A stretch of 64,000 bases of DNA from an uncultured Gammaproteobacteria bacterium (GTDB taxonomy: Bacteria > Patescibacteriota > Patescibacteriia > Patescibacteriales > GWC2-42-12): positions 2,059 through 66,058 of the forward strand of contig CAYXNZ010000005.1 in assembly GCA_964467155.1 (NCBI GenBank). The letters are read 5' to 3'. The notes beneath the pieces are model-generated. The model worked only from the letters and a program-made list of their open reading frames with translations, searched no databases and was not told the DNA's origin. The position numbers were made by a program, and so were the translations under genes. Positions 6,901-53,107 of this stretch are shown here, piece after piece; the stretch's first letter is position 1; the number at the start of each line of letters is the position of its first letter.

Positions 6901-7287
6901 GGTTAGATTAGTATTGAATTTCCAATGAGATAATATTTGACCAAAAATATCGGTCGTGGCTGATTCGGCTGATTGGTTATATGAGATGATGTATATATTA
7001 GTGTAGAGATCCCCCGTAGTTGAAACGTTGGCAGCATTAACATAAACAGTCCGACCATCGCGAACTGCTTCATAACCATCAACTGTTATTGACTGAGGTG
7101 AACCATCAAACCCTTGTTCATTGTACCAACGATAGGCGCTATAGTGTTCGTTGTTTGGCATTACACGTAAACCAATAGCGTCGGGCGAAGTAGTAGCTTG
7201 TCCAATAGAATTATTTAACAATAAAAACCCTAGTAGCAATAATGTAAAAAGTATTAATTTAAAACAATTTTTATTTTTTAAATTCAT
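3895..7287 (-). CDS. Large secreted surface/adhesin-like protein, paralogue B (shared N-terminal module, Ig-like repeats, CGDG Cys-rich repeat, beta-propeller)
   Basis: 1130-aa ORF with a signal peptide and the same N-terminal ~260-aa module as 271-2991. It has a YCGDG...EVCEDGN Cys-rich repeat. A run of NHL/Vgb-like propeller blades follows (GDIWIANRNSGNVTKLD, GNIWVVNNSSGTIRVLD, DNVWLGGYNGG). Confidence 0.75.
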   Translation of the reverse strand: MNLKNKNCFKLILFTLLLLGFLLLNNSIGQATTSPDAIGLRVMPNNEHYSAYRWYNEQGFDGSPQSITVDGYEAVRDGRTVYVNAANVSTTGDLYTNIYIISYNQSAESATTDIFGQILSHWKFNTNLTEPGMCSQSSDVVCLTNDNCPINEYCLSQKAKTIRDTRRLSDMVEINRALENYKAIHGYYPKLESGSYLPNKTLSTWPSWQDNLATELGIVLPVDPINKLGTCDDYDETTCWNSEIKEFAGSIPDNLPENSQAYVFDVSSDGSSYSGCSVMESGYFDTSQNNVCAQSTIEYFEQIENHPPIIQLPTSGLRAGYAVINLVAGQKLEYFLSAFDPDNDDLSPISLWEINAGNLNNWIDSQWSSVPERQNTEVSNIKKIYVQSVGQAGEYYFSVTVNDGRGGIDNINFRVVVTNQPPVIEVNSASVVAGHNDFVVNPFTIRATDYDNHYPLTFNILGQLPQGLSGQKIDDNTFQIDGIPVGSYPQDTDYQLNISVTDNYGASSEEDFTITVVNNPPIFTTTPVTEVRVGNYYSYDVEATDSQDNHLITQYRFGDRRISDLNIDSSTGLVDGIASVPIGRYEIDLEAIDQYDAVGRQNYELWVKTYCGDGLQQNPNDEGDEEVCEDGNTENIDACSDTCQWTCKAMDIDFNNGRGDGVVYDDDNNSSHVEDVNEGEYLKLLGVMPTPYIWIANSGIEKVAKLRTFDGPKRDCKRNTDGTVDCWWVDGTWEKMGQLIGTYNVGSNPSRTAVNVETGDIWIANRNSGNVTKLDINGVHLKTCATGSGPRGVAIEKNGDVWVGNYSGGGVVKISGDDTHCEILKTINVGSYGLAIDSNGNIWSSHGTNGATKIDVNNNFTTTHYPAGGGYGITIDLDDNVWLGGYNGGHGAIRLNSSTGGVNYFGTGYNGLGITVDLNNNIWPSTYTNNGILKISPGNHPAGLDYVFRINSGGSDAHGACGDSQGNIWVVNNSSGTIRVLDSGGNILGANSTVSNATIGTDGLRVFKAYEDGAPSTTYSYSDMTGLNRALLLRSGVWEDTFDSGFVNQHWGDISWEAIMTSEKQSIEIFVRASNDSNLNNFNWVTTQTWNSLEYNDDIRKGRYAQIKIKMRSSEKGITPVLWGLKMNCD

Positions 7288-13064: not shown

Positions 13065-13135
13065 TCGGGGGTCGTCTAACGGTAGGACAGCTGGTTTTGG
13101 TCCAGTCAATCGGGGTTCGATTCCCTGCCCCCGAG
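13065..13135 (+). tRNA. tRNA-Gln (anticodon UUG)
   Basis: Manual cloverleaf: acceptor TCGGGGG/CCCCCGA (U1:A72, G73), anticodon stem GCTGG/CCAGT with loop TTTTGGT, T-arm CGGGG-TTCGATT-CCCTG. CCA is not encoded. Confidence 0.85.
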
Positions 13136-13183
13136 CAGATTTTTTAAAAAAAATATCGTTATTTTAAATTTAATATAAATACT

Positions 13184-13717
13184 ATGCAGGAACTTATACT
13201 TAATTTTATAAAACAAAATATAACAGATGCTATCTGGATTATTATTTTATTCTTTTTTAGCAGAATAGTTTTAAAGATTATAGTTATGCGGTTTGCGAAG
13301 ATAGTCGATGACGGAGACGATGATTATGAATCACAAAAAGAAAAACGGGCAAAAACTCTAAGTCATATCATCATAACAACCGGGAATATTATTATTTACG
13401 CTATAATTTTAATTATGATTTTAAGTGTATTTGGAGTAGATATTCGACCTATTCTGGCCGGGGCAGGTGTTGTTGGATTGGCAATCGGTTTTGGCGCGCA
13501 ATCATTAGTCAAGGATTTTGTTTCAGGACTTTTTATTTTAGTTGAAAATCAATATGGAATAGGTGATAAGATAAAAATAGGTAGTTTTGAGGGGGTTGTT
13601 ATTAGAATTACGATGCGTTCCACAGTATTAAAAAATAAAGAAGGAATGTTATATTATATTTCTAACGGATTGATAAAGGATGTGCTTAATATGTCTCAAC
13701 AAAAAAAATCTTTATAA
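13184..13717 (+). CDS. Small-conductance mechanosensitive channel (MscS)-like protein, short form
   Basis: 177 aa. The pore helix and start of the beta domain (GLAIGFGAQSLVKDFVSGLFILVENQYGIGDKIKIGSFEGVV) are paralogous to 36878-37732. It ends before the C-terminal alpha/beta domain. Confidence 0.65.
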   Translation: MQELILNFIKQNITDAIWIIILFFFSRIVLKIIVMRFAKIVDDGDDDYESQKEKRAKTLSHIIITTGNIIIYAIILIMILSVFGVDIRPILAGAGVVGLAIGFGAQSLVKDFVSGLFILVENQYGIGDKIKIGSFEGVVIRITMRSTVLKNKEGMLYYISNGLIKDVLNMSQQKKSL

Positions 13718-36646: not shown

Positions 36647-36663
36647 TTAAATATCAATATTAT

Positions 36664-36701
36664 AAAAAAAAGGTTTAGAATTAATTCTAAACCTTTTTTT
36701 T
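36664..36701. terminator. Bidirectional terminator (perfect 24-nt palindrome)
   Basis: aaaaaaa-aggtttagaatt|aattctaaacct-tttttttt. A near-identical copy is at 48433-48467. Confidence 0.7.
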
Positions 36702-36718
36702 ATTTCTAAATTTTATAA

Positions 36719-36877
36719 CCCCCACCCCAGCCCCTCCAGAGGCGGGCAGGAGTAAACCGTATAAACGTTACTTCCCCCACCCCAGCCCTCCCCCACAACA
36801 AGTTGCGGGAGAGGGAGCACAACATTTACATAGTTCCCTCTCCCGCGAGGAACGAGCGGGGGAGGGTTAGGGAGAGA
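36719..36877. repeat. GC-rich modular palindromic repeat locus A (MITE-like)
   Basis: Contains module ggcaggagtaaaccgtataaacgtta, the left hairpin ccctccccc-acaacaagttgc-gggagaggg, the centre gcacaacatttacatagt, and the right unit CCCTCTCCCGcgaggaacgaGCGGGGGAGGGTTAGGGA (36836-36873). It ends 1 nt before the mscS stop codon. Confidence 0.8.
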
Positions 36878-37732
36878 CTACTTCCCTGCCTGATGCACCA
36901 CCATCTGTGGAAATGGAATCTCAATCCCCTCTTTATCAAAAGCAATTTTTAATCTTTTGCGGAACTCTCCAGCAACTGCCCATTGTTGAAGTGGTTTGGT
37001 ATCGCCTAATATCTTTACTATTATTGCTGAATCAGCAAACTCATTTACTCGAACAAAATGCGGTGCCTCAATTATAAATTCTTTCCATTCTGAATCATTA
37101 AATAATTCTTGTCCAACTTTATCTATCACTTTTATTAATTTTTCTAAATCAGTATCGTAAGCAACACCTAAATCAATATTTACTCTGGCAAATTCTTTTG
37201 ACAGATTAGCAACCTTGGTAATCTCACCGTGAGGAATATGATGAACTGTACCGTCTAAATCTCGTAAAACCGAAACGCGCAAATTAATATCCTCAACTGT
37301 GCCAGAGATATCTCCAACACGAATGACATCACCAACGCGATATTGATTTTCCAAAATTATAAATAATCCTGAGATAAGATCACGGATTAAATACTGACCG
37401 CCAAAACCAACTGCTAATCCAATAATCCCAGCCGCTGCAATCATCGGTCCAATTTCTACGCCAAACTCAGACACAATCATAATAGCCGCTACTATCCAAA
37501 TAATTAATTTAAGTGTTGTGTCAAAAATCTTGATTAAAGTATCTTCTCTTTTTTTCTCCGCTTCTGGGCTAATAAAATTTTTCGAAACCACTGTTTTTCT
37601 AACAGTTTTTTCAATTAATGAACCACTGAATGTTTTTATCAACCAAGCAACAATTATAATCGCTACTATTTTTAAACCATGAGTAATTAACCACGGTTCA
37701 AGTGTCTTGAATATATTTTCCACAATTTCCAT
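36878..37732 (-). CDS. mscS: Small-conductance mechanosensitive channel MscS
   Basis: 284 aa with 3 TM. The pore helix GLAVGFGGQYLIRDLISGLFIILENQYRVGDVI is present, along with full beta and alpha/beta cytoplasmic domains. Confidence 0.85.
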   Translation of the reverse strand: MEIVENIFKTLEPWLITHGLKIVAIIIVAWLIKTFSGSLIEKTVRKTVVSKNFISPEAEKKREDTLIKIFDTTLKLIIWIVAAIMIVSEFGVEIGPMIAAAGIIGLAVGFGGQYLIRDLISGLFIILENQYRVGDVIRVGDISGTVEDINLRVSVLRDLDGTVHHIPHGEITKVANLSKEFARVNIDLGVAYDTDLEKLIKVIDKVGQELFNDSEWKEFIIEAPHFVRVNEFADSAIIVKILGDTKPLQQWAVAGEFRKRLKIAFDKEGIEIPFPQMVVHQAGK

Positions 37733-37800
37733 ATTTTTTATATTAATTAATAAATAAATTATTAAGCATCGCTATTTTAGTATATCACAAAACCTTTATA

Positions 37801-38260
37801 TTCCCCCACACCAGCCCCTCCAATTCGGAGGACGGGAGAGGGAGCATATATTTATTATAGTCCCCTCTCCCGTGAGGAACGAACGGGGGAGGCCTGCCCG
37901 CCGAATTGGAGGGGTTAGGGAGGTTAAAATAAGAAAAAAAATAACCCCCTTAATCCCCCTTTACAAGAGGGACAAAATAGTTCCCTCTCCCGTGAGGAAC
38001 GAGCGGGGGAGGGGTTAGGGAGGGGGTTTCTTTCACTTTAGTCCACAAAAACCTAGACTAAAGTCTATATTTTAAATTTCTATTCTGTCATTCTGAGGAT
38101 CTTTATAACCCCCACCCCAACCCTCCCCCACAACAAGTTGCGGGAGAGGGAGCACACATTTGCATAGTTCCCTCTCCCGTGAGGCACGAACGGGGGAGGC
38201 CTGCCCGCCGAATTGGAGGGGTTAGGGAGGGGGTCTCTTATCCCCTCCTTCTCCCCTTTC
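37801..38260. repeat. GC-rich modular palindromic repeat locus B (three right-hand units plus accessory hairpins)
   Basis: Right-hand units lie at 37863-37923 (long variant), 37983-38026 (short) and 38170-38233 (long). The accessory hairpin ccccctttacaagaggg lies in 37941-37980. A gtcattctgaggatc module is at 38088-38101. Confidence 0.8.
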
Positions 38261-38389
38261 TTATCCACATTTTTTTATGAGCGTTATCCCAGAATCATCA
38301 ACTTGACTACTTACCTAGTTTTAATTTTTAATATAAAGATATAGCACGTCTTTTTATTCTTGAAATTTATTTTTTTTATTTTTAAAAAA

Positions 38390-38398
38390 TGCTATAAT
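38390..38398 (+). promoter_or_regulatory. Extended -10 promoter element TGCTATAAT upstream of the giant surface-protein gene
   Basis: Same 9-mer as at 19409 and 21508. It lies ~390 nt upstream of the ATG at 38787. Confidence 0.4.
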
Positions 38399-38617
38399 AT
38401 AACAAAGTTATCCACATTAAAAATTTATTAAAATAATCTAAAAATCACAAATAGATTTTTCTGTAATAATTCTAATAATAATATTTGCATACATAAAAGA
38501 TAATAATATAATATTATTAAAGTATTATTATCTAGATTTAAATTTTTATCTAGTTATTTTATTTCTGTTTTATTACCCATGCAAGGTTTAACTCAGACAA
38601 TCAAACAAACAAATATA

Positions 38618-38666
38618 AAAGCTTGCTTTTTTATAAAGGTCGACTTTAAGCAAGCGGTTTTTTATA
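38618..38666 (+). terminator. Terminator-like hairpin inside the long leader (possible attenuator or sRNA end)
   Basis: gcttgctt (38621-28), a 19-nt loop, aagcaagc (38648-55), followed by ggtttttta. Confidence 0.3.
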
Positions 38667-38786
38667 TCCAAAAAATTAATTAATTAAATACTAAATAAAT
38701 CAATTTCCAAAACACACTCATTAGCGTTTAACATATAATTTATTTAATTTAAAAAACGCTAAGTGGTTTGGAATAAGGAAAATATT

Positions 38787-41700
38787 ATGATTAAAAAAAC
38801 TAAAAAAATGAAACTTCTATCAAAGCTTTTTATTATAGCTTTGGTTATTAGCTTTGGCGCTCTAGGTAGTGCTTTTTCACCAATTGAACAAGCGCAAGCG
38901 GCGGCGGATATCACTCTATCAGATGATACCATCAATGAAGGTTCGGAAAATGAAGAATTAATTACTGTCACGTTAGCAGGTGATACCTTTGTTGGTTCTC
39001 TTAATACAGCCAACTGGGCGGTTACCAATCTCCCAGCTGGAGTAGTAAAATCAACTATCTCCAGGACAGACGAAACTACTGTCACGATTGCTTTAAGCGG
39101 TGATAGAGCTGTGGATTATGATACCAGTATTGAAAATGTGACTGTGACAATAGCAGCTGCTGAATTTACAAGTTCTGCAGTCCAAGTTTCAGCAAGCACT
39201 GGCGTAACTTTAGTAGCCACTGCTGACGATGAATCTGTTACTGCTGCCTGGGCAACTTCTCCTGGTACAAGTGGAGCAGAAGCTACAATGGATGCTGAAG
39301 TTCTAACTGTTACCTTAGCTGGCGGTACTTTGATTTCAGAGCAAGTTACTATTGGTAATATCACCGCTACTGGAACAGCTGTTAGTGCAGCAGGAGTAAC
39401 TATTGAAAGTGTTACCTGGACTGATGCCACACACTTTGATGTTGCTTTGGCTTGGACTGCGACAGATTATGACGAAGATAAAACACTTATTATTAATGTA
39501 GCCGCAGCTGCCTATGATGAAGGAGCTATCGCCATTGCTACTGACGAGATTACTCTGACGGCAACTGTTGAGCCAATTGCGATTGCTCTCAGTGACAATA
39601 CTATCGCTGAAGGTTCGGAAAGTGCAGGAGTGATTAATGTGACACTGACAGAAGATACTTTTATAGCAACCTTGGTTCAAGGAAACTGGGCGGTTACCAA
39701 CCTTCCAACTGGAGTAACAAAAGGAACTGTTACCAGGTTGAGCGATACTACTGCTACGATCGCTTTAGTTGGCGACAGAGATGAAGATTATGATACCAGT
39801 ATTACTAACGTGATTGTGACTGTTCAGGCTGGAGACTTGACTCTTTCAGATGCTATAGTCGCTTCAGATGGCACCGGTGTGACCTTAGTAGCCACTGACG
39901 ATGCTGAATCTATTGCAATTACAAATGATGGAATAACAGAAGGCGCAGAAGGTGGCGAAGTTATTACCGTTACTTTAACAGGCGGTACATTTGCAGACCC
40001 ATTAGTCCCAGCAAGCTGGGTAGTTACCAACCTTCCAAGCGGCGTTACAGCTGGTGATCCCGAGAGGACAAGCGCTACAGAAGCCACGATTACTTTAAGT
40101 GGAAACAGAGATGTAGATTATGATTCAAATATTACTGATTTAACAGTAACAGTAGCTTCTGATGACATAGACGATATTGATGTTCCTGTTTCAATAGCTA
40201 CAGGTGTTACATTCACGGCCTCTAATGATGCAGAATCTGTTGCTGCTACTTGGAATGGGGATCCTGGAACTAATGGAGCAGAGGCAACTTTAGATGCAGA
40301 TATAATAACTGTTACTCTTACTGATGGTACTTTTGTTAAAGCTAGTGTGGATAATATTACAATAAGTGCCGGTGCAGGAATAACAAAAGAAAGTGTAACT
40401 TATACCGATTCAACTAATGTAGATATATTATTGGCTTGGGATGGAACAGATTTTGACGATCATGAAACAATAACAGTTAGTGTGCCGGTCACGGCTTACG
40501 CAGATTCAACAAGCGGCGACGCGATTACAGATACAATTAATACTGTTGCAACTGATGATGGTGAATCTATTGCAATTACAAATGATGGAATAACAGAAGG
40601 CGCAGAAGGTGGCGAAGTTATTACCGTTACTTTAACAGGCGGTACATTTGCAGACCCATTAGTCCCAGCAAGCTGGGTAGTTACCAACCTTCCAAGCGGC
40701 GTTACAGCTGGTGATCCCGAGAGGACAAGCGCTACAGAAGCCACGATTACTTTAAGTGGAAACAGAACTGTAGATTATGATTCAAATATTACTGATTTAA
40801 CTGTGACAGTGGCTGCTGGTGACATAGATGATTCTGGCGGCTCTGTTTCAATAGCTACTGGTGTTACATTCACGGCAACTGATGATGGTGAATCTATTGG
40901 AGTTGCCTGGGCAGGAACTCCCGGTACTAATGGAGTAGAAGCGACAATGGATGCTGAAATAGTAACTGTTACTCTATCTGACGGTACTTTGATTGAAGGT
41001 TCGGTTAATGCTACGAATATTACTGCTACTGGAACAGCCGTTGATGATGCTGGAGTAACTATTGAAAGTGCTACTTATGTCGATGCTACAAGTTTTACTG
41101 TCGCTTTGGCTTGGGATGACACGGATTATGATGTTAATAAAATTTTAACTATTAATGTAGCCGCAGTTGCCTACGATGATGCAGGTGGCGCCATCACCGG
41201 AGATATTACTTTGACAGCAACTGTTGAGCCACCTTCGATAGCCTTGACAGACGATACTATCAATGAGGCTGCAGAAACTGGCGAACTGATTACCGTCACG
41301 TTGACAGGTGATACTTTTGTTGAGAGTTTGACTCAAATAAACTGGACAGTCACCAACCTCCCAACTGGAGTATCAAAAGGAACTGTCACCAGGACAGGCG
41401 CTACTACTGCTACGATTGCTTTAAGTGGAAACAGAACTGTAGATTATGATACAAGTATTGAAAATGTGACTGTGACTATTGCAGCCGATGAACTTTATTC
41501 ATATACTCTTGGTTCAATTTTAGCAAGCACCGGCGTAACTTTGGTAGCCGATGCTAGCGCTGAAACTATCGGAGTTGCCTGGGCAGGAACTCCTGGCACT
41601 AGTGGAGTAGAGGTGACTATGGATAGCGAAATCGTAACTGTTACCTTGACTGAAGGTACTTTGATTTCAGATCAGGTTAATATGACTAATATCACCGCTA

Positions 41701-44700
41701 CTGGAACAGCTGTTAATAGCGCGGAAGTAACTATTGAAAGTGTTACTTATACTGACACCACACACTTTAATGTTGCTTTGGCATGGAGTGGACTAAATTA
41801 TGATGTTGAAAAAACACTTACCATTAATGTAGCTGGAGCTACCTATGATGAAGGAACTGATCCTATTACTGACGATATTACTTTGACGGCGACTGTTGAG
41901 CCAACAGTAGAAGTAACCATGGGTGCTAATACTTTTAAGGTTGAAGAATCAACCCTGGTTACATTTACCTTCTCATCAGCTCCAACTGGATTTACAGTTG
42001 ATGATGTGACTACTATTGATAATGGTCTTCTTTCAGGATTCACAGTTACTGGTGATACAAAGATTTACACTGCAACTTTTACACCAACTGATGATACAGA
42101 AGCCGCAACAAATGTTATTACAGTTGGAACTGATTGGACTGATGGCACAAGCGCTCCATTAGCAGGAGATAGTTCTCCTAATTATACTATTGATACGAAG
42201 GAACCAACAATTACTATTACATCAAATGACGAAGCTCTATATACCGGAGATGCTGTCGCCACAATTACTTTTGATATTATTGGAGGCACGGTAGACTTTG
42301 CCCTTGAAGATGTTGTCGCGGTTGGTGGCAATCTTAATGCTTTCACAGAAGTATCAGCTGGAGTTCAATATACTGCTATCTTTACCGCGAGTAACGATAG
42401 TACTACTGGCGCAACAATTAATGTAGCGGCTGGAACATTCACAGATGCTGCTGGAAATAACAATACAGTTGCAATTCAAGAAACAATGACGGTTGATACT
42501 CTTGCTCCAACAATAAATACTGTTACTTCTAATGCTACAGAAACTGGTACATTAAAAGTGGGTGATGCGATTATTTTCACAGTTACACCTACTATCCAAG
42601 AAGCTGGCTTAACTGTTCTTCCTGCTACTTATAATGGAGGTGCTTTATCATGGTCAACTGGCGATAGTGGAGTAACCTATACCGCAACCTATACTGTTGC
42701 AGAAGACCAAACTGACCAGGATCCAGCTTTACAATTATTAGGCGTTACTTTGACAGATGCGGTTAGTAATACTGGCGCTGGTGTTAATGGTACTGATGTA
42801 GCAAAATTGATTGATGCTAATTCACCTGACATAACTTCTGTTACTTCTAATGCTACAGTAGAAGGTACATTAAAAGTAACCGATATGATTGTTTTCACAA
42901 TTACACCTGTTGTTCAAGAAGCTGGCTTAACTGTTGCTCCTACTACTTACAATGGAGGGACATTAGAATGGTCAAGTGTTGATGGAACAACCTATATCGC
43001 AACTTATACTGTTGTAGAAGACCAGGACGATCAGGATCCAGCTTTACAATTAACAAGCGTTACTTTGACAGATGCAGCTGGGAACGATGGTGTTTCTGCT
43101 GATGGCGCCGATGTAGCGAAGAAGATTGATGCTAATACTCCAACCGCAGCCTTTACGGCAGCCACAGATAATGTCGGTTCTGTCATGGGTCCTTTGAATA
43201 CTGGCGACACGACCGATGATACTGAGCTTCTACTTACCGGTGCCAATGAAACCGGTTCGACTGTGGAAGTCTTTAACGGAGCAGCATCGTTAGGCGCAGC
43301 CACAGTTAATGGCACTGGTTGGACTTACTCCGCTACTGTTGTTAATGGCACAACTTATCAATTCAATATTAAAGAAACAGACGCGGCAGGAAATATTAGC
43401 GATGCAACAGATGACTTCACAGTGATAGGAGATACCGCCGCTCCAACAGCCGTAGTTGTAGCCAACGAGGTTGCTATTTATGACAGTGATGCTGGTACTG
43501 ATGCATTTATAATTACTGCAACATTCTCTGAGGCTATGGATAATACAAAGATTCCAACCGTAGTATTCGATGCTGCTTTAGACTCAACTTTAACAAGTCC
43601 AGAAGGTGCTTGGAGTACAGTTGCTCATGATAATGATACATATACCTGGACTTATGATATTGCAGATGCAGGTGTTACAGTTGCAGATGTTGATGTCACT
43701 GTTGATGGTGGTGATGATATAGCAGGTAATGATCAGACTGCTAAAACTAATACAGATTACATTGATGTTGATACAGAAAATCCAACCACAACAATTTCCG
43801 ATGACGAAGATGGCGTAGCCAATATTACCGGTGGCAATATTACTTATACTTTTACCTTCGGTGAAGGTGTAACAGATTTTACTGTTGCTGAAGCTGTTGT
43901 AACGGGTGGTACTAAAGCTGTGGATTTCGCATCAGGTGTTTCTGGTGAGGCCGTCTATACTCTTGTAGTTACCCCAGACTCTGATTCTACAACTAATATT
44001 ACTGTCAATGTCGCCGGTGGCGTAGCTATTGATATAAACGGTAATGACAATGTTGTAGCTGCTGAATCAACACAGACAGTTGATACTCTGAGACCAACCG
44101 TTGGCATTACTGATGATAATGCTGGTACCGTCAATGACGGTAATCCCGAAGTGCTTTATACTTTTGAATTCAGCGAAAATGTTACCGGCTTTACCACCGA
44201 CGATGTCACTGTGACCGCTGGAGGAATCGCAGGCGAATTCAGCGCCACTGATGGCAGCAATACATATACTTTGGCTGTGACTGCGGACGATGGCAGTACC
44301 ACAAATATTAGTTTAACCATTTCTAATGCTGATTTAATTGATGCTAATAGCAATACTATGGCCGCTGATGCGACTGACACCGATCAAGCGGTTGATAGAA
44401 TAGAGCCAACCCTCTCAAGCGCTGCGCGAGATAACAATACACAAATTACTGTTACTCTAAGTGAACTTGCTAATGGAAGTAGCATTACTGATGCAAGTGA
44501 TGGTGGTTTCGTTGTTGCTGAAACTGACGCAGCTGAAACTACTTATGCAGTTTCGGATATCACTCCAGGAGTTACTAACGATTTAGTAGTCTTAACTGTT
44601 GCTGATCTCGGAGTATCTGCTAAAGAAGGCATTACCGTTACTTACTCTTCTGCAAACAACGGAGCCGTAACCGATGTAGCAGAGAATGATCTTGCTACAG

Positions 44701-46454
44701 ACACAACCGGTGTGACAATCGCTGCCTGGGATACGACAGCTCCAACTGTCATAGATGTGACATCTAATTTAGAAGATGGCTCATACAAAGTAGATCAAGT
44801 TGTTGATATTGATGTGACTTTTTCGGAAAATGTTATTTCTTCTGGCGATGTAACTATTACTTTTGATACAGGCGGAACTTGTACTTTCACAGTAGATGAT
44901 TCTGATACTGGAACATGTAACTACACTGTACTTGTAGGACATACCAGCGCTGATCTAACAGTCTCTTCTATTACTGGTGTGGTGAATGATATTGCAGGTA
45001 ATACGCTTGTAGTACCTGCGACACCGACTACAAATCTTGCGGCTAATAAGGCATTCGTTATTGACACAACCGCGCCAGCACTTTCAGTTGATGCTATAGT
45101 TGGTACTACTGTTTCTGAAGCCAATGATACAATCGTCTTGAATTTTGACGGTCCAGTAGTAACACATGATGGCGGAGCTTGGGCGGTTGAAGAATTTGAT
45201 TCTATTTCAGGATCTGAATCCGGCACTCTTGTTCTTACTACTGCAACCTTTGAATATACTAGTAATACATTGACTATTACTCTAGATGAAACAACAGATC
45301 ATGAATACTTAAAAACTGGAGAAACATTAACAGTCAATCCAGCTACTGATAAGATTAAAGATGCCGCTGACAATTCTCTAGTTACAACTGCAGTGGAAGC
45401 GACAAATCCTGTTGGTGGTGATAGTGTAGCCCCAACAATCTCATCCATGGTTTATACCCAAGGGGAAACTACTGTTACCGTTATTAGACCATCAGTATAC
45501 GGTTTAACAACAAGAGTAACTACAACATTTGATGAAGCCATGGAAGAAGGAGTTAAACCTCAAATTGCAATTGATGCGCAGGGAACAAGCGTTGATGTTA
45601 CAGCAACTAATATGACAAAAACATCGAGTACCGTTTGGTATTATGATTGGACCGTCCCAAATATTGATGCTATTCAAGGTGAAGCGACTATTACGCTTAC
45701 AGGAACAGACCTTGCCGGTATTGCCTTTAATTCCGCCTCTACACAAACAGTAACTATTGATGAAAAAAGTCCGGTAATAGCAAATGGTGGAGTTACTTTA
45801 GATAAAGATTCATATAGAATAACTCAAGATGCTAATGTAGAGGTTACTGTGGTTGAAGATAACACTGCTTCAACGATAACTGTAAATGGAGTTTCAGCAA
45901 TTGAGTCTGAAACGGCAGGAACATGGATCGGAACATTTGCTCATGGACAAGTAGCCGTCAGCACTTATTCATTTGATGTTGTCTTGACAGACGCTTATGG
46001 AAATGTAACTACCCAGATGGTTCAATATAGAGTAGTAGCTGATACTGCAACTGAACCAACAGAAATATCTGTTACTACTGCTTTAGTTAAACGAATTGCT
46101 ACTAAAAATGGTGAGTTTGACGATGGTTGGAGATGGGTTTTAGATGTTACTCTTCCAACTGCTTCAACAACTTTAAGTATGAGTTTTGATGATTTGACTG
46201 GTGCTGGAACGATTGATGCTACTAATATCCGTTTCTATTCAGCTGAATCTGACCATACTTCTGCCGGTCCAATAGTAATTGCGGCATCAGGAGCTGGTAC
46301 AGAATGGTCAGAAAGCATACTTCTCGATACTGATTTATATTCTAATATTGCTGGTAGACAAATTCAGATTACTGTCCAAGCCGCTGTTCCAGAAGGTAGT
46401 ACTAGCGGTGCCTATTCTGCCAGTTATGACATTCAAGCCAGTTTAGTGGAATAA
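38787..46454 (+). CDS. Giant repeat-rich secreted surface protein (S-layer/adhesin-like), 2555 aa
   Basis: AAGGA RBS 8 nt before the ATG at 38787. Signal peptide MIKKTKKMKLLSKLFIIALVISFGALGSAFSPIEQAQA. About 8 N-terminal ~110-aa modules (..NWAVTNLPxGV..T.TR...T.ATIALSGNR.VDYD..I.N.TVT..) alternate with a second module type. These are followed by many ~95-aa bacterial Ig-like modules (TxDTxxPT...FSE.V.GFT..D........). The protein is T/A/V/D-rich and has no Cys. Confidence 0.85.
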   Translation: MIKKTKKMKLLSKLFIIALVISFGALGSAFSPIEQAQAAADITLSDDTINEGSENEELITVTLAGDTFVGSLNTANWAVTNLPAGVVKSTISRTDETTVTIALSGDRAVDYDTSIENVTVTIAAAEFTSSAVQVSASTGVTLVATADDESVTAAWATSPGTSGAEATMDAEVLTVTLAGGTLISEQVTIGNITATGTAVSAAGVTIESVTWTDATHFDVALAWTATDYDEDKTLIINVAAAAYDEGAIAIATDEITLTATVEPIAIALSDNTIAEGSESAGVINVTLTEDTFIATLVQGNWAVTNLPTGVTKGTVTRLSDTTATIALVGDRDEDYDTSITNVIVTVQAGDLTLSDAIVASDGTGVTLVATDDAESIAITNDGITEGAEGGEVITVTLTGGTFADPLVPASWVVTNLPSGVTAGDPERTSATEATITLSGNRDVDYDSNITDLTVTVASDDIDDIDVPVSIATGVTFTASNDAESVAATWNGDPGTNGAEATLDADIITVTLTDGTFVKASVDNITISAGAGITKESVTYTDSTNVDILLAWDGTDFDDHETITVSVPVTAYADSTSGDAITDTINTVATDDGESIAITNDGITEGAEGGEVITVTLTGGTFADPLVPASWVVTNLPSGVTAGDPERTSATEATITLSGNRTVDYDSNITDLTVTVAAGDIDDSGGSVSIATGVTFTATDDGESIGVAWAGTPGTNGVEATMDAEIVTVTLSDGTLIEGSVNATNITATGTAVDDAGVTIESATYVDATSFTVALAWDDTDYDVNKILTINVAAVAYDDAGGAITGDITLTATVEPPSIALTDDTINEAAETGELITVTLTGDTFVESLTQINWTVTNLPTGVSKGTVTRTGATTATIALSGNRTVDYDTSIENVTVTIAADELYSYTLGSILASTGVTLVADASAETIGVAWAGTPGTSGVEVTMDSEIVTVTLTEGTLISDQVNMTNITATGTAVNSAEVTIESVTYTDTTHFNVALAWSGLNYDVEKTLTINVAGATYDEGTDPITDDITLTATVEPTVEVTMGANTFKVEESTLVTFTFSSAPTGFTVDDVTTIDNGLLSGFTVTGDTKIYTATFTPTDDTEAATNVITVGTDWTDGTSAPLAGDSSPNYTIDTKEPTITITSNDEALYTGDAVATITFDIIGGTVDFALEDVVAVGGNLNAFTEVSAGVQYTAIFTASNDSTTGATINVAAGTFTDAAGNNNTVAIQETMTVDTLAPTINTVTSNATETGTLKVGDAIIFTVTPTIQEAGLTVLPATYNGGALSWSTGDSGVTYTATYTVAEDQTDQDPALQLLGVTLTDAVSNTGAGVNGTDVAKLIDANSPDITSVTSNATVEGTLKVTDMIVFTITPVVQEAGLTVAPTTYNGGTLEWSSVDGTTYIATYTVVEDQDDQDPALQLTSVTLTDAAGNDGVSADGADVAKKIDANTPTAAFTAATDNVGSVMGPLNTGDTTDDTELLLTGANETGSTVEVFNGAASLGAATVNGTGWTYSATVVNGTTYQFNIKETDAAGNISDATDDFTVIGDTAAPTAVVVANEVAIYDSDAGTDAFIITATFSEAMDNTKIPTVVFDAALDSTLTSPEGAWSTVAHDNDTYTWTYDIADAGVTVADVDVTVDGGDDIAGNDQTAKTNTDYIDVDTENPTTTISDDEDGVANITGGNITYTFTFGEGVTDFTVAEAVVTGGTKAVDFASGVSGEAVYTLVVTPDSDSTTNITVNVAGGVAIDINGNDNVVAAESTQTVDTLRPTVGITDDNAGTVNDGNPEVLYTFEFSENVTGFTTDDVTVTAGGIAGEFSATDGSNTYTLAVTADDGSTTNISLTISNADLIDANSNTMAADATDTDQAVDRIEPTLSSAARDNNTQITVTLSELANGSSITDASDGGFVVAETDAAETTYAVSDITPGVTNDLVVLTVADLGVSAKEGITVTYSSANNGAVTDVAENDLATDTTGVTIAAWDTTAPTVIDVTSNLEDGSYKVDQVVDIDVTFSENVISSGDVTITFDTGGTCTFTVDDSDTGTCNYTVLVGHTSADLTVSSITGVVNDIAGNTLVVPATPTTNLAANKAFVIDTTAPALSVDAIVGTTVSEANDTIVLNFDGPVVTHDGGAWAVEEFDSISGSESGTLVLTTATFEYTSNTLTITLDETTDHEYLKTGETLTVNPATDKIKDAADNSLVTTAVEATNPVGGDSVAPTISSMVYTQGETTVTVIRPSVYGLTTRVTTTFDEAMEEGVKPQIAIDAQGTSVDVTATNMTKTSSTVWYYDWTVPNIDAIQGEATITLTGTDLAGIAFNSASTQTVTIDEKSPVIANGGVTLDKDSYRITQDANVEVTVVEDNTASTITVNGVSAIESETAGTWIGTFAHGQVAVSTYSFDVVLTDAYGNVTTQMVQYRVVADTATEPTEISVTTALVKRIATKNGEFDDGWRWVLDVTLPTASTTLSMSFDDLTGAGTIDATNIRFYSAESDHTSAGPIVIAASGAGTEWSESILLDTDLYSNIAGRQIQITVQAAVPEGSTSGAYSASYDIQASLVE
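39906..40109 (+). repeat. Exact 204-bp intragenic repeat, copy 1
   Basis: Base-for-base identical to 40563-40766 (checked by eye). The offset of 657 bp equals 219 codons. Confidence 0.9.
40563..40766 (+). repeat. Exact 204-bp intragenic repeat, copy 2
   Basis: Identical to 39906-40109. Near-identity continues for ~40 bp further downstream. Confidence 0.9.
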
Positions 46455-46503
46455 ACCAAAATGATAACTTCTAATTTGTTAATAAATTAATATATATTAT
46501 GAT

Positions 46504-48252
46504 ATGAAAATACATAAAATTATCTTTTTGGTTACTCTAGGGCTATTGTTAACCGCTTCAACTTGTCTTGCTACCTGGACAATCGATAACGGTATTAGTA
46601 CTGGTAGTGGTGAAGCCATTACTGCTTACGAACCCGTTGCTAGTCCAGCTGCAGGAACATATCATGCTACCCAAAGTGTTATTTTAACAGCTACTGACGC
46701 TTCAGCTATTTGTTATACTATCGATGATAGTGATCCAGATTGCGCGACTGCAACTACTTGTAGTACTGGTACGGTTTATGATTCGGCTATTTCCGTGACC
46801 TTAACGGATACTATTAAAGCTATTTCTTGTTATGATGATAATAGTTATGTTTCTAAGTCTACTGTTGCTACTCATACTTATACTTTAACCTGCACAACCA
46901 GCAGTGTAACCAACGGAACAGTTGGAGCTTATTCGGGTTGTGCTGTTACTTGTAATTCTGGTTATACTTTGAGTGGTAGTACCTGTGTTACTTCCGGCGG
47001 AGGTGGCGGAAGTAGTGGTGGCTCTACAGCTACTGTACCAACCACACAACAAACTTCCATTACAACTACTGATGGAACACAAGTAACTACTTCAACTGAT
47101 ACTACTGGCGGAACCGCTACTGCTACTATTAATACTGTTTCATCCCCTACTAATAGCCAAACAGTTACCCTAGATACTTCCACTGTTGCTGATGCAAGCA
47201 GTGTTTCTGTTGAACTATCTGCTTTAGTTATGCAGGAGCTGGTCGCTGATCATGGCGCTGACATAGACTTAACCGTTAATATTACTAGTCAAACTGCTTC
47301 CTCTGACCAAAGAACAAGTACTGCTCTAGGTACTGGTACATTTTTAGTCGGTCTTGATGTTTTTAATGTAGAAATTCTGGCTGGAGACACTTCTATTACC
47401 AATTTTGACAATCCGCTAACTCTTTCTTTTGATGTTTCAGATATACCAAACCCAGAAAATTTAACTATCTCTTGGTTTGATACAACGCAAAACAAATGGG
47501 TGGATTTAGGTGGTACTCTATATGATGGTGTGCTAACAATTACTGTTAATCACTTAACTGACTTTGCAGTTATTAGAACAGGCACTACTACTGAAACTAC
47601 ACCTGCTACTACCCCTGAAACCAGTCCTACCGCTACCGTCACTACACGTGAACAACAAATCGTAAATATCTTAAATGAATCTTCTCTGATTTTTGATAGT
47701 GGTTATGATTTGACCAATTTACTATCTCATAATGGAGTAGCAGAAAATGCAACCGAACAAACTGCTAGCATGGAAAAATATACCAATACTTTAACTGCCG
47801 ACATGACTGACCTGACAACTGAAAATACTTACTCAATCAACAACTTTATTCTTTATGGTACTCAAACCACGAGAGTATTAGGCGCTGGTGAAAGAGCTGG
47901 TGTGGTTAATTCCTATAAATCAGCCTTTGATAAATTACCAACTACCGCTGATGAATGGGCTGATGTCATTAAAATCGGTAATGGTCGCTGGCCAAGCGAG
48001 GCTAGTCAAACTGCCGAAGATCGAGCAAAAATTAGCTTCAATACAATTTACTTGCGTGAAGCAGACATGGCTAATCCAAATGATAATGCCGCTGTCACCG
48101 TTATGGCCTACGGACTACGACCGGATGCGAGAAATTTAGACAGTGAGAAAGTCGCCATTAAAACCTTCAAAGCAATCTTTGGTTACAACCCAGTCGAAGC
48201 AACTTCTTGGGATGCAGTCAGAGCTATCGCCTACTCAGGTGCTGTGAGATAA
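46504..48252 (+). CDS. Secreted protein with N-terminal chitobiase/hexosaminidase-C-like (Fn3-associated) domain and a conserved C-terminal domain
   Basis: 582 aa with a signal peptide. PAAGTYHATQSVILTATDASAICYTIDDSDP is the typical CHB_HEX_C-like pattern. There are T/S/G-rich linkers. The C-terminal part is ...GAGERAGVVNSYKSAFDKLP...GNGRWP...WDAVRAIAYSGAVR. Confidence 0.75.
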   Translation: MKIHKIIFLVTLGLLLTASTCLATWTIDNGISTGSGEAITAYEPVASPAAGTYHATQSVILTATDASAICYTIDDSDPDCATATTCSTGTVYDSAISVTLTDTIKAISCYDDNSYVSKSTVATHTYTLTCTTSSVTNGTVGAYSGCAVTCNSGYTLSGSTCVTSGGGGGSSGGSTATVPTTQQTSITTTDGTQVTTSTDTTGGTATATINTVSSPTNSQTVTLDTSTVADASSVSVELSALVMQELVADHGADIDLTVNITSQTASSDQRTSTALGTGTFLVGLDVFNVEILAGDTSITNFDNPLTLSFDVSDIPNPENLTISWFDTTQNKWVDLGGTLYDGVLTITVNHLTDFAVIRTGTTTETTPATTPETSPTATVTTREQQIVNILNESSLIFDSGYDLTNLLSHNGVAENATEQTASMEKYTNTLTADMTDLTTENTYSINNFILYGTQTTRVLGAGERAGVVNSYKSAFDKLPTTADEWADVIKIGNGRWPSEASQTAEDRAKISFNTIYLREADMANPNDNAAVTVMAYGLRPDARNLDSEKVAIKTFKAIFGYNPVEATSWDAVRAIAYSGAVR

Positions 48253-48410
48253 AGCTTGCTTGTCCGCCGAAGCTTTAGCGTAGGCGGAGGATGCAGTCAG
48301 AGCGATTGCCTATTCAGGAGCTGTAAGATAAAGCTTGCTTGTCCGCCGAAGCTTTAGCGTAGGCGGAGGATGCAGTCAGAGCTATCGCCTACTCCGGAGC
48401 TGTGAGATAA
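48253..48410 (+). repeat. Two tandem 79-bp units, each a 37-nt GC hairpin spacer plus a copy of the last 13 codons and stop of the upstream gene
   Basis: Spacers at 48253-48289 and 48332-48368 are identical (TCCGCC-N14-GGCGGA). Tail copies at 48290-48331 and 48369-48410 still encode DAVRAIAYSGAVR-stop. Confidence 0.9.
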
Positions 48411-48432
48411 TACTTGATTTCAATTACATACC

Positions 48433-48467
48433 AAAAAAGGTTTAGAATCAATTCTAAACCTTTTTTT
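48433..48467. terminator. Bidirectional terminator (copy of the 36664-36701 hairpin)
   Basis: aaaaaa-aggtttagaat-ca-attctaaacct-ttttttt. Confidence 0.7.
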
Positions 48468-48488
48468 ATTGTCTAAATTTTTTGTCAT

Positions 48489-48700
48489 ATCCCCCTCCCT
48501 AACCCTCCCCCACCTCGCCGATTCGGCGGGCGGGAGAGGGAGCACGCGTTTGCATAGTTCCCTCTCCCGTGAGGAACGAGCGGGGGAGGGTTAGGGAGGG
48601 GGAAAATCCCCTCTCTTTTTTGTCATTCCCGCGAAAGCGGGAATCCCTGCCCGCCGGCAGGCAGGCAGGAGTAAACTGTATAAACGTTATTTGTTCCATT
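48489..48700. repeat. GC-rich modular palindromic repeat locus C (112-bp MITE-like unit with perfect 21-bp terminal inverted repeats, plus accessory hairpins)
   Basis: ccccctccctaaccctccccc (48491-48511) is the exact reverse complement of gggggagggttagggaggggg (48582-48602). The inner arms are cgggagaggga / tccctctcccg. Downstream lie the hairpin attcccgc-gaaa-gcgggaat (48625-48644) and the module ggcaggagtaaactgtataaacgtta. Confidence 0.85.
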
Positions 48701-48929
48701 TCATATCATGTAATAAATCTCTCCAAGTTGGATTTTCTTTTTTATACTCCATATTTCTACTGCTCTCTCCTGGATCCCCAGTCAAGCTGAGGATGACAAG
48801 CAGAGATTTATTTGTTCCTTAGTTGTACCTAGAGTATAAATGCCAATGATTATTTAGACATTATTTATTCTTTAGACGGTTTGCATTAAAAGCTCCAGTT
48901 AAAAACTGGAGCTAGCGAGGTAACCTAAA

Positions 48930-49101
48930 TACGTCCCCTCTCCCGTGAGGAACGAGCGGGGGAGGGTTAGGGAGGGGGAAGAAATAAAAATTAAAATAAC
49001 CCCCTCAATCCCCCTTTGCAAGGGGGACAAATACGTCCCCTCTCCCGTGAGGAACGAACGGGGGAGGCCTGCCCGCCGGATTGGAGGGGTTAGGGAGGAG
49101 G
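48930..49101. repeat. GC-rich modular repeat locus D (two right-hand units plus the ccccctttgcaaggggg hairpin)
   Basis: Units lie at 48936-48978 (short) and 49038-49101 (long, with a nested cctgcccgccggattggag insert). The hairpin lies in 48996-49030. The locus ends directly at the ftsX stop codon (49102-49104). Confidence 0.8.
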
Positions 49102-52311: not shown

Positions 52312-52396
52312 AACAATATAATTATATCATAAATAATTATAAGCTACGAAATAAAATATTTCTAAACTTAAAATTTTGCAAATTTTAGACAAATTT

Positions 52397-52611
52397 GCGG
52401 GTGTCGTATAATGGTTATTACATCAGCTTCCCAAGCCTAATAAAAATAAATATGCAGGATTAGTACAATGGTAGTACATTTGCTTCCCAAGCAAGAAACA
52501 CGAGTTCGATTCTCGTATCCTGCTCAATCCGGCAGGCAGGCAAGCTGAGAAAGCCAGTCCCCTGCCCGCTCGTGCCTCGCGAGAGGCAGGCGGGGATTCT
52601 GGTCACCCGCT
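52397..52611 (+). pseudogene. Disrupted tRNA-Gly(CCC): the 5' part (52397-52436) and 3' part (52544-52611) are separated by an insertion that contains an intact tRNA-Gly; a 37-nt hairpin sits in the T-loop
   Basis: The 5' part is GCGGGTG-TC-GTATAATGGTTATTAC-A-TCAGC-TTCCCAA-GC. The 3' part is GCTGA-GAAA-GCCAG-T[hairpin 52559-52595]ATT-CTGGT-CACCCGC-T. The acceptor and anticodon stems are complementary across the gap. CAAGC occurs at both junctions. Confidence 0.7.
52454..52524 (+). tRNA. tRNA-Gly (anticodon CCC)
   Basis: Manual cloverleaf: GCAGGAT/ATCCTGC acceptor, D-arm GTAC-AATGGTA-GTAC, anticodon stem TTTGC/GCAAG with loop TTCCCAA, T-arm ACGAG-TTCGATT-CTCGT. CCA is not encoded. Confidence 0.85.
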
Positions 52612-52620
52612 CAAATATAA

Positions 52621-52693
52621 GCCGACCTAGCTCAACTGGTAGAGCAACGGTATCGTAAACCGTAGGTTGTGGGTTCAATTCCCACGGTCGGCT
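52621..52693 (+). tRNA. tRNA-Thr (anticodon CGU)
   Basis: Manual cloverleaf: GCCGACC/GGTCGGC acceptor, D-arm GCTC-AACTGGTA-GAGC, anticodon stem ACGGT/ACCGT with loop ATCGTAA, T-arm GTGGG-TTCAATT-CCCAC. CCA is not encoded. Confidence 0.85.
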
Positions 52694-52700
52694 CAAATAA

Positions 52701-52820
52701 ACGGTATCGCCCGCCCGCAACGACTTACGTCTTGCGGAAGTCGAGCGGGTAAACCGTAGGTTGTGGGTTCCCTGCCCGCTCGTGCCTCGCAGAGGCAGGC
52801 GGGAATTCCCACGGTCGGCT
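52701..52820 (+). pseudogene. Partial tRNA-Thr copy A (anticodon stem to 3' end) with a 40-nt hairpin inside the anticodon and a 33-nt hairpin in the T-loop
   Basis: ACGGTATCG[52710-52749]TAAACCGTAGGTTGTGGGTTC[52771-52803]AATTCCCACGGTCGGCT. Apart from the two inserts it is identical to tRNA-Thr positions 27-73. Confidence 0.8.
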
Positions 52821-52827
52821 CAAATAA

Positions 52828-52947
52828 ACGGTATCGCCCGCCCGCAACGACTTACGTCTTGCGGAAGTCGAGCGGGTAAACCGTAGGTTGTGGGTTCCCT
52901 GCCCGCTCGTGCCTCGCAGAGGCAGGCGGGAATTCCCACGGTCGGTT
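52828..52947 (+). pseudogene. Partial tRNA-Thr copy B (second 127-bp tandem unit)
   Basis: Same structure as copy A, with inserts at 52837-52876 and 52898-52930. There is one C>T change in the acceptor 3' strand (GGTCGGT). Confidence 0.8.
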
Positions 52948-52954
52948 CAAATAA

Positions 52955-53047
52955 ACAGTGCTGGATCCGGGCTTTGTCCGGAGCTATAGTGAAATTTTAC
53001 CCGTCCGAATCCGCCAACTGGCGGAATATGCGGGCCCACGGTCGGTT
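52955..53047 (+). pseudogene. Third, more degraded tRNA-Thr 3'-end remnant preceded by other GC hairpins
   Basis: Ends in CCCACGGTCGGTT (the T-stem 3' strand plus acceptor). Upstream are the hairpins TCCGG-gctttgt-CCGGA and TCCGCC-aact-GGCGGA (53010-53025). Confidence 0.55.
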
Positions 53048-53065
53048 CAGAAATAATCATATAAT

Positions 53066-53098
53066 AAAAAATAATCCATGAAAAATGGATTATTTTTT
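53066..53098. terminator. Bidirectional rho-independent terminator
   Basis: aaaaa-ataatccat-gaaaa-atggattat-ttttt. Confidence 0.7.
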
Positions 53099-53107
53099 AT
53101 TATATGA

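Follow-up and report, generated by a model that had tools for sequence, protein, structure and literature searches.

A 20-nucleotide block distinguishes long and short forms of a palindromic intergenic repeat in a Patescibacteria contig

Palindromic repeats at the locus

We analysed a 64,000-nucleotide stretch of contig CAYXNZ010000005.1, referred to here as the window, and in it a 20-nucleotide (nt) block that occurs in some copies of a short palindromic repeat and is missing from others. The window is AT-rich, with a GC content of ~34%, and its genes are bacterial, the nearest named homologues coming from Patescibacteria, in the candidate phyla radiation. Extragenic stretches with a GC content of at least 70% are confined to four intergenic regions (36647-36877, 37733-38762, 48253-49101 and 52312-53107).

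The repeat that carries the block, hereafter the host repeat, has the core CCCTCTCCCG-loop-CGGGGGAGGGTTAGGGAGGGGG, and its copies are designated E1 to E7 (Table 1). A repeat finder returned seven right-arm units (families D5, D8, D11 and D15) with the pattern GT(T/C)CCCTCTCCCG(T/C)GAGG(A/C)ACGA(G/A)CGGGGGAGG...GTTAGGGAGG. Four of these are short, starting at 36833, 37980, 48557 and 48933, and three are long, starting at 37860, 38167 and 49035. The seven units and four doublets are all intergenic, with 0 expected from shuffles of the 64 kb sampled. The doublets E1, E2, E4 and E5 are palindromic, their left and right arms aligning as reverse complements, and each folds into a single long hairpin (-62 to -91 kcal/mol). 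The first half of a doublet consists of a C-rich outer arm (CCCCCTCCCTAACCCTCCCCC), a variable loop segment, GGGAGAGGGAGC (also written GGGAGAGGGA) and an apical loop of ~15 nt; the second half consists of TCCCTCTCCC, a 13-nt loop segment and a G-rich outer arm (GGGGGAGGGTTAGGGAGGGGG). The stems include G-T/G-U positions. The left arm of E3 and E7 is of another type, and E6 stands alone as a singlet. At one loop site of the host repeat the alternating modules measure 12, 13 or 20 nt, and at another site discrete states of 0, 1 and 21 nt are found.

The 20-nt block and related hairpin inserts

The seven right-arm units are separated by one clean 20-nt indel (CCTGCCCGCCGRATTGGAGG), which is present in three and absent from four. 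Their MAFFT alignment contains a single 20-column gap and no intermediates, and the spacer from CGGGGGAGG to GTTAGGG measures 0, 0, 0, 1, 21, 21 and 21 nt. An earlier note on this DNA had attributed the long and short variants to a discrete module of ~20 nt, and this holds, since there is no continuum of variants among the units of the window. The range given in the note, 37863-37923, corresponds to the whole right arm of E2, of which the block is only a part. The short unit at 37980 holds one additional G (GGGGGAGGGGTTAGGG) and thus equals a long unit minus exactly 20 nt. The block, which across the long units can be written CCTGCCCGCCG(A/G)ATTGGAGG, is identical in E2 and E4 and differs by one change (GGATT) in E7; shuffles expect 0 occurrences of the 20-mer. 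On both sides GGAGG brackets CCTGCCCGCCGAATT, forming a 5-nt direct repeat around the 15-nt core of the block; this repeat permits six alternative placements of the block.

The block core GCCCGCCGAATYGG is found five times in the window, in the three long arms and in the left arms of E2 and E5. It thus occupies two distinct positions of the host repeat, the outer arm and, in E5, the left-hairpin loop; in Azospirillum homologues the latter site consists of ACCTGCGGT alone. The copy in E5 and a truncated long-type arm on the reverse strand had not been listed in the earlier note. The 26-nt repeat to which the truncated arm is joined occurs twice (36745-36770 and 48664-48689), each time joined to the GGCAGG end of a CCTGCC-type module. 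The suggestion that the insertion is mirrored on both arms of E2 holds in part: the left arm does carry a copy that pairs with the right-arm block in the fold, but this copy is displaced from the mirror position, its perfect complementarity is limited to CCGAATTGGAGGGG, and the arm lacks CTCCCCC and the loop segments. E4, as stated before, has no left-arm counterpart, and its block protrudes from the long hairpin as a bulge. When a right arm is taken by itself, the block adds a weak second hairpin. It also separates the G tracts, with the result that the compact G-quadruplex-type motif of short units is lost in all long units.

The host repeat is widespread. A scan for CGGGGGAGG-N(0-30)-GTTAGGGAGG with one genome per species returned at least 120 stretches, and the matches listed include Azospirillum, Bradyrhizobium, Methylocystis, Melainabacteria, Chloroflexota, Planctomycetes, Nitrospirota and others. 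In nearly all of the matches listed, the complementary arm CCCTC(T/C)CCCG precedes the unit by a few bases. Of the 123 foreign copies among the matches listed, 122 have a spacer of 0, and in the remaining one the spacer is a 9-nt tandem duplication. The whole E5 doublet (115 nt) aligns to repeats on Azospirillum replicons over 96-97% of its length with 70-74% identity and without the block; one of these homologues is situated between pcaF and pcaD. Since the site is uninterrupted in nearly all of the listed foreign copies and in the Azospirillum homologues, the short state is general and the block is derived. The long form is thus specific to the lineage of the window organism. The host repeat belongs to an unnamed family that occurs across many bacterial phyla. 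At gathering score Rfam returned nothing, and below it only generic miRNA-type hairpins and very weak matches to BjrC80/ar14. Distant phyla share the core hairpin CCCTC(T/C)CCCG-loop-CGGGGGAGGGTTAGGGAGGGGG and the ~110-nt doublet (loci L005-L124, L214 and L215), which is unusual for repeats resembling the repetitive extragenic palindromic (REP) type. Copies in other phyla also tolerate nested hairpins in the loop, which measures 24-65 nt in some copies from Azospirillum and gammaproteobacteria. In a metagenome contig with 36% GC (L187), practically the same site of the host repeat holds a different ~30-nt hairpin that starts CTGCCCGC.

The beginning of the block recurs outside the host repeat. 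There are 8 exact occurrences of CCTGCCCGC in the window and 18 with at most one mismatch, versus 2.5 expected. These include the hairpins at 52561, 52771 and 52898, in agreement with the earlier report, which gave the first as 52559, that the same core begins the hairpins in the T loops of transfer RNA (tRNA) genes. All 17 occurrences of CC(C/T)GCC(C/T)GC in the window lie within GC-rich modules, with at least five unrelated left flanks. The motif CC(C/T)GCCCGC begins at least four types of insert whose left boundary is set by uninserted sequence, the references being the intact tRNA-Thr (52621-52694), the intact tRNA-Gly of a relative and the short repeat units. A random 9-mer of module composition would match CCYGCCCGC with a probability of 1.9e-4 per boundary. 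Several independent boundaries therefore do not carry the motif by chance, even given the six placements that are possible for the block.

These inserts are seen most clearly in the tRNA genes. Compared with the intact gene, the tRNA-Thr 3' fragments carry a 40-nt hairpin in the anticodon loop, between ACGGTATCG and TAAACC, and a 33-nt hairpin in the T loop, between GGGTTC and AATTCCC. In two different tRNA genes the T-loop hairpin interrupts the sequence at an identical point, TTC^AATT, and no duplication flanks the tRNA-loop inserts. An ancestral tRNA-Gly(CCC) is split in the window: its first 40 nt lie at 52397-52436 and are followed by an insert of 105 nt (52437-52541). AAGC stands at either side of this insert, which carries a different, intact tRNA-Gly(CCC) at 52454-52525. 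The palindrome at 48646 has its first 11 bases in common with the block and provides the complementary half that the block lacks. The 20-nt block itself is limited to the host repeat and its two positions there, and only its first 9-11 bases recur in five other contexts. The common terminus supports the assignment of the block to the same group as the tRNA-loop hairpins.

Several observations were made beside these inserts. The last 48 nt of tRNA-Thr are repeated twice in a perfect 127-nt tandem (52677-52930) with GC-rich hairpins in both loops, and a third remnant within 53000-53050 is preceded by another hairpin. A JGI contig (L211, sample 3300005932) has a single 127-nt copy, reflecting either copy-number variation or assembly collapse. 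The palindrome at 48646 is directly adjoined by the hairpin GTCATTCCCGCGAAAGCGGGAATC (48622-48645), which is also present, with the loop AAAA, in a relative (L201, 4425-4450) whose genome is otherwise free of GC-rich modules. The 3' end of a tRNA-Gln(TTG) in the region 13065-13717, CCTGCCCCCGA, resembles the block start CCTGCCCGCCGA, which may be coincidence; downstream of this tRNA lies a truncated 177-aa MscS paralogue without the C-terminal domain. A derivation of CCTGCCCGCCGA from the 3' end (T stem and acceptor) of a tRNA such as tRNA-Pro is conceivable, but there is no such tRNA in the window.

Table 1. Copies of the host repeat, the block and related modules in the window
Feature	Position	Strand	Context
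E1	36770-36878		Palindromic doublet; right arm short
E2	37801-37925		Palindromic doublet; right arm long; partial mirror copy in left arm
E3	37942-38028		Left-arm subfamily B; right arm short with one additional G
E4	38105-38236		Right arm long; left part 90% identical to E1
E5	48487-48606		Near-perfect palindromic doublet, -91 kcal/mol as RNA; right arm short; mini-hairpin in left loop
E6	48933-48981	+	Right-arm singlet, short
E7	48997-49101		Right arm long; left part 85% identical to E3; adjoins FtsX stop codon
20-nt block CCTGCCCGCCGAATTGGAGG	37893-37912	+	Right arm of E2, long unit
20-nt block, identical copy	38200-38219	+	Right arm of E4, long unit; no left-arm counterpart
20-nt block CCTGCCCGCCGGATTGGAGG	49068-49087	+	Right arm of E7, long unit
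Degenerate block copy CCCGTCCTCCGAATTGGAGG, 17/20 (3 mismatches)	37817-37836	-	Left arm of E2; pairs with right-arm block
Block-like mini-hairpin CCCGCCCGCCGAATCGGCGAGG	48513-48534	-	Loop of left hairpin of E5; 14-mer core 13/14
Truncated long-type arm CCTGCCCGCCTCTGGAGGGG (CTGGGGTGGGGG)	36731-36750	-	5' side joined to a different 26-nt repeat, GGCAGGAGTAAACYGTATAAACGTTA
24-nt palindrome CCTGCCCGCCGG/CAGGCAGGCAGG	48646-48669	+	Block 5' half plus near-complement; complete minimal hairpin
37-nt hairpin CCCCTGCCCGC...GCAGGCGGGG	52559-52595	+	Replaces TCA in T loop of ancestral tRNA-Gly 3' remnant
33-nt hairpin CCTGCCCGC...GGCAGGCGGG	52771-52803	+	Between TTC and AATT, T loop of tRNA-Thr 3' fragment; second copy 52898-52930
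40-nt hairpin CCCGCCCGC...GAGCGGG	52710-52749	+	Anticodon loop of tRNA-Thr 3' fragment; second copy 52837-52876
GCCTGCCTGCCGGATT	52526-52541	-	End of 105-nt insert splitting ancestral tRNA-Gly; 14/15 match to E7 block
35-nt hairpin CCCGTCCGAATCC...GCGGG	53000-53034	+	Directly before third tRNA-Thr 3' remnant (CCCACGGTCGGTTCA)

Related genomes differ in their inserts. We designate relatives by identity, that of MscS for the 87% genome (L201), with a further genome at 83% (L203). The 87% relative has the order DacC-FtsE-FtsX-MscS, intact tRNA-Gly and tRNA-Thr, and no GC-rich modules. The 83% relative has an intact copy of the tRNA-Gly that is split in the window, the 5' part of its tRNA-Thr continues into CCTGCCCGCC at a contig end, and GCCCGCCGAATCGGCAGGC forms the apical hairpin of a different repeat, twice. 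Presence and absence between genomes is thereby demonstrated for the tRNA-gene hairpins that are related to the block, and relatives at 63-67% have no such inserts. Since the inserts differ between L203, L187 and the window, they were gained at different places in different lineages. The different repeat in L203 (3520-3650 and 4745-4875) has the framework GTCATTGCGA...AAGCAATCTC with TCCCGAGTGTTCGGGA or AGCCTGCCGATTCGGCGGGCT as alternative apical hairpins, a second case in this lineage in which hairpin modules are exchangeable.

Proposed origin and spread of the long form

The insertion represented by the 20-nt block is genuine, discrete and derived, and its site is the G-rich 3' arm of a repeat that resembles REPINs, the inverted doublets of REP sequences. 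Two observations bear on how it came to be present in three repeats. The first is its linkage to a G-to-A site 11 nt upstream: all three long units read ACGAAC and all four short units read ACGAGC (Fisher p = 0.029). Since both ACGAAC and ACGAGC are present in short units of other organisms, the block lies on a single pre-existing background, and its perfect linkage to the upstream change makes three independent insertions unlikely. The second is that the left parts of the elements group otherwise, E1 with E4 and E3 with E7, each pair consisting of one short and one long element. This discordance between block presence and left-arm subfamily suggests that a right-arm segment was copied between repeats. 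Copying from repeat to repeat would explain the three block-bearing repeats better than repeated transposition. For the earlier proposal of one mobile module family this means that the shared terminus at fixed boundaries stands, but that repeated independent insertion into the repeat does not agree with the ACGAAC linkage and the left-arm discordance.

The account that we favour, with about even confidence, is that of a derived mini-insert that entered once and spread through right-arm conversion or recombination. The block would have entered a single GAAC-type right-arm unit, flanked by GGAGG, and the right-arm segment, with both the upstream change and the block, would then have passed between repeat copies by gene conversion or recombination. 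The left-arm copy in E2 might have arisen through arm-to-arm templated correction of the quasi-palindrome, or through recombination between a loop-site copy and an outer-arm copy. The block itself is probably a short, decayed member, either half a hairpin or a lone terminus, of a lineage-specific set of GC-rich inserts. These begin CC(C/T)GCC(C/T)GC(C), and full-size members end GCGGG and form hairpins of 24-40 nt. Their landing sites are the anticodon loop and the T loop of tRNA genes, the left-hairpin loop of E5 and the outer arm of the repeat.

A number of points weigh against this account of a single entry by a member of the insert set, followed by copying. The GGAGG flanks are equally expected under microhomology-mediated templated insertion. 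On its own the block has no inverted termini or complementary ends and folds weakly (-4 kcal/mol as DNA), unlike the 33-40-nt hairpins. Past its first 9-11 bases it resembles the T-loop hairpins little, so that its descent from them can only be inferred. The linkage to the upstream change is based on the seven units of one 64-kb window, a small sample, and the ~4 kb to the left and 0.7 kb to the right of the window contain zero additional copies of the element. The interruption of tRNA-Thr in the 83% relative is visible solely at a contig end. Among the 18 open reading frames (ORFs) of the 64 kb scanned with Pfam there is no transposase or recombinase, including the Y1 domain; the sole transposase-type gene seen near the region is an IS30-like pair (HTH_38 and rve; L208, 5230-6207) about 2-3 kb to the left of window position 1. 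Finally, insertion or excision of the block was not caught in populations: contigs from ~10 samples (five exact window proteins) are all identical or end inside repeats, and the intermediate alleles that the earlier note had in mind are absent from these available contigs.

The alternative that retains most merit, although we consider it rather unlikely, is that of an active mini-element with site specificity, the block having entered the three long units and the left arms of E2 and E5 in separate events. The presence of the same core at two distinct positions of the host repeat would follow from this, the GGAGG direct repeat resembles a 5-bp target duplication, the T-loop hairpin at TTC^AATT in two tRNA genes suggests target specificity within the family, and the long units have three different left arms. 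But independent insertion would create no link to the upstream G-to-A change, and the block has neither a terminal inverted repeat nor a hairpin of its own. It is also found nowhere outside the host repeat, with 0 matches in viral contigs and none among ~200 loci examined. A metagenome scan with the lineage-type loop GAGGMACGARCGGGGGAGG returned 76 stretches, of which about two thirds are chance matches in GC-rich genes, and the block is in none of them; at GC-rich loci only chance matches to CCTGCCCGCC were found, in genes. The lack of polymorphism among the contigs compared likewise does not speak for an active element.

A further possibility, which we judge to be unlikely, is that the block originated in a single templated event, an insertion or duplication through template switching during replication at the GGAGG microhomology, and was then spread by gene conversion. 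In this case it would be unrelated to the tRNA-loop hairpins, and the common CCTGCCCGC would reflect a limited vocabulary of GC-rich hairpins. Such an origin is consistent with microhomology at both junctions, with the resemblance of the second half of the block (TTGGAGGGG) to the host arm, with a similarity to the T-loop hairpins that stops after 9 bases, and with linkage and discordance, both of which fit conversion. What it does not account for is that the 9-mer lies exactly at the independently set boundaries of several module types rather than at random internal sites. Nor does it account for the fact that the first 11 bases of the block match the palindrome at 48646, for the 14/15 match between the block and the end of the tRNA-Gly-splitting insert, or for the related inserts in the 83% relative.

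It is quite doubtful that the long and short forms are functional alternatives, such as a switch between G-quadruplex (G4) and hairpin or a signal for RNA stability or regulation, kept by selection rather than by selfish spread. The canonical G4 motif G5-A-G3-TTA-G3-A-G5 is present in the short units E3, E5 and E6 and in no long unit. Conservation of the core across phyla and the G-T/G-U positions in the stems would also be compatible with a function. However, the elements occur in convergent, divergent and post-terminator positions alike, they match no Rfam family, and in the 83-87% relatives the whole host repeat is missing at the orthologous sites. An assembly or chimera artefact of short-read metagenome assembly over repeats can be dismissed: several short contigs (L004 and L205) do stop inside repeats, where assemblers struggle, but the flanks differ among the three long units, and ENA, JGI and Logan contigs from independent samples and pipelines span the long-unit regions with 100% identity to the window, so the long form is no such artefact.

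Beyond the account that we favour, we put forward as a speculation, and as a somewhat improbable one, that Patescibacteria of this lineage carry a hitherto undescribed class of ultra-small insertion modules of 15-40 nt, defined by a CC(C/T)GCCCGC terminus. Their site-specific targets would be loops in folded single strands of DNA or RNA, namely the anticodon and T loops of tRNA and the hairpin loops of a repeat. They would be placed by an enzyme so far linked to no miniature element, and would ride on a cross-phylum REPIN-like repeat, which a shared factor belonging to the host or to a mobile element would recognise. What we only infer concerns the enzyme, its substrate strand or molecule, and any function.

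Genomic surroundings and known systems

The MscS and FtsX genes, which are neighbours in relatives (46-bp spacer in the 87% relative, or 380 bp), lie 11.4 kb apart in the window (37733-49101). The intervening block encodes a 2,563-aa Big_12 protein and a 582-aa protein and has a GC content of 40-44% versus 30-35% around it. It is bordered by direct composite repeats, with the order long-spacer-short at 37857-38028 and short-spacer-long at 48933-49101, and looks like an acquired island or a recombination product. The final 43 nt of the 582-aa ORF are overlapped by three 79-nt copies in tandem (48210-48446), of which the first and second hold the hairpin TCCGCCGAAGCTTTAGCGTAGGCGGA. A conventional terminator comes next (48433-48466), and a terminator belonging to the 582-aa gene itself thus precedes E5. 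A role of the host elements themselves as intrinsic terminators was rejected, as no T runs follow them. Elsewhere, two large adjacent surface-protein genes of the He_PIG/NHL type share a segment of ~690 nt (2198-2889 versus 6500-7191, 85-88% identity), which is a recent internal duplication or conversion.

Genomes of the candidate phyla radiation are small and considered streamlined. In this window, four intergenic regions hold selfish-looking DNA in several layers: a cross-phylum palindromic repeat, small GC-rich hairpins nested in it and in tRNA remnants, a split and replaced tRNA-Gly, and an 11-kb repeat-bordered block with a surface-protein gene. If it is true that CC(C/T)GCCCGC inserts target hairpin loops, they would constitute a compact system for the movement of small non-coding DNA with no transposase nearby, and such targeting would explain assembly breaks at these places. 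If it is untrue, the locus still illustrates clearly how long and short variants of a repeat come about and are reshuffled through conversion.

Among known systems, the closest comparison is with REP singlets and REPINs. Bertels and Rainey (2011, PMC3116915) describe these as short GC-rich extragenic palindromic units whose inverted doublets fold as one long hairpin. The host repeat likewise has singlets and inverted doublets that cluster in intergenic regions, the doublets being better conserved. It differs in that a cognate gene for a REP-associated tyrosine transposase (RAYT), usually flanked by the repeats, was not seen in the 64 kb, where the 18 ORFs scanned lack a Y1 transposase domain, and in that the unit has a G4-type tail. 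REPs are normally lineage-specific, whereas the core and doublet of the host repeat are common to Azospirillum, Bradyrhizobium, Melainabacteria, Chloroflexota and Planctomycetes. The bacterial interspersed mosaic elements of Escherichia coli combine palindromic units with short linker motifs, each of a set length. Host repeats are mosaics too, in which short modules recombine in varied order and internal segments come in discrete long and short forms, but there is no sequence relation: a blastn search of 5,426 complete E. coli genomes with E5 gave no match, and an origin from Box C/REP-type sequences of E. coli was rejected accordingly.

The small dispersed repeats of cyanobacteria, reportedly described by Elhai et al. 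in 2008, were invoked as a parallel in the earlier note and may be an analogous case, in that non-coding units of ~20-30 nt lie inside other repeats and vary in presence between related sequences. Insertion within another repeat is seen here for the block, in the outer arm, and for the related mini-hairpin, in the left loop. The differences are that the host is a Patescibacterium, that the 20-nt block is so far found in one host repeat, and that its spread resembles the conversion of larger segments. Yeast mitochondrial GC clusters and Rickettsia palindromic elements are GC-rich palindromic mini-inserts in AT-rich genomes, located inside RNA genes or other copies and present or absent between relatives. 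GC-rich palindromic mini-inserts in an AT-rich genome are seen here as well, but those cases concern an organelle and an alphaproteobacterium, the sequences are unrelated, and the present inserts lie in disabled tRNA fragments and repeats rather than in working genes.

With miniature inverted-repeat transposable elements, the inserts share that they are non-coding, hairpin-forming and dispersed, that members of 33-40 nt have complementary termini, and that the 15-nt core of the block has a 5-nt direct repeat on either side. They are, however, ten-fold smaller than is typical, the block has no terminal inverted repeats, and we know of no parent transposon for them. Sequences that could be read as target-site duplications are GGAGG around CCTGCCCGCCGAATT and AAGC around the 105-nt tRNA-Gly insert, with none at the tRNA-loop hairpins. 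A literature search by sequence string returned only V5-tag primers and unrelated papers. Nested, mosaic miniature repeats are already known, and to our knowledge such elements have not been described for this lineage; the block is a modest example of miniature repeats nesting in other repeats rather than a new kind of element.

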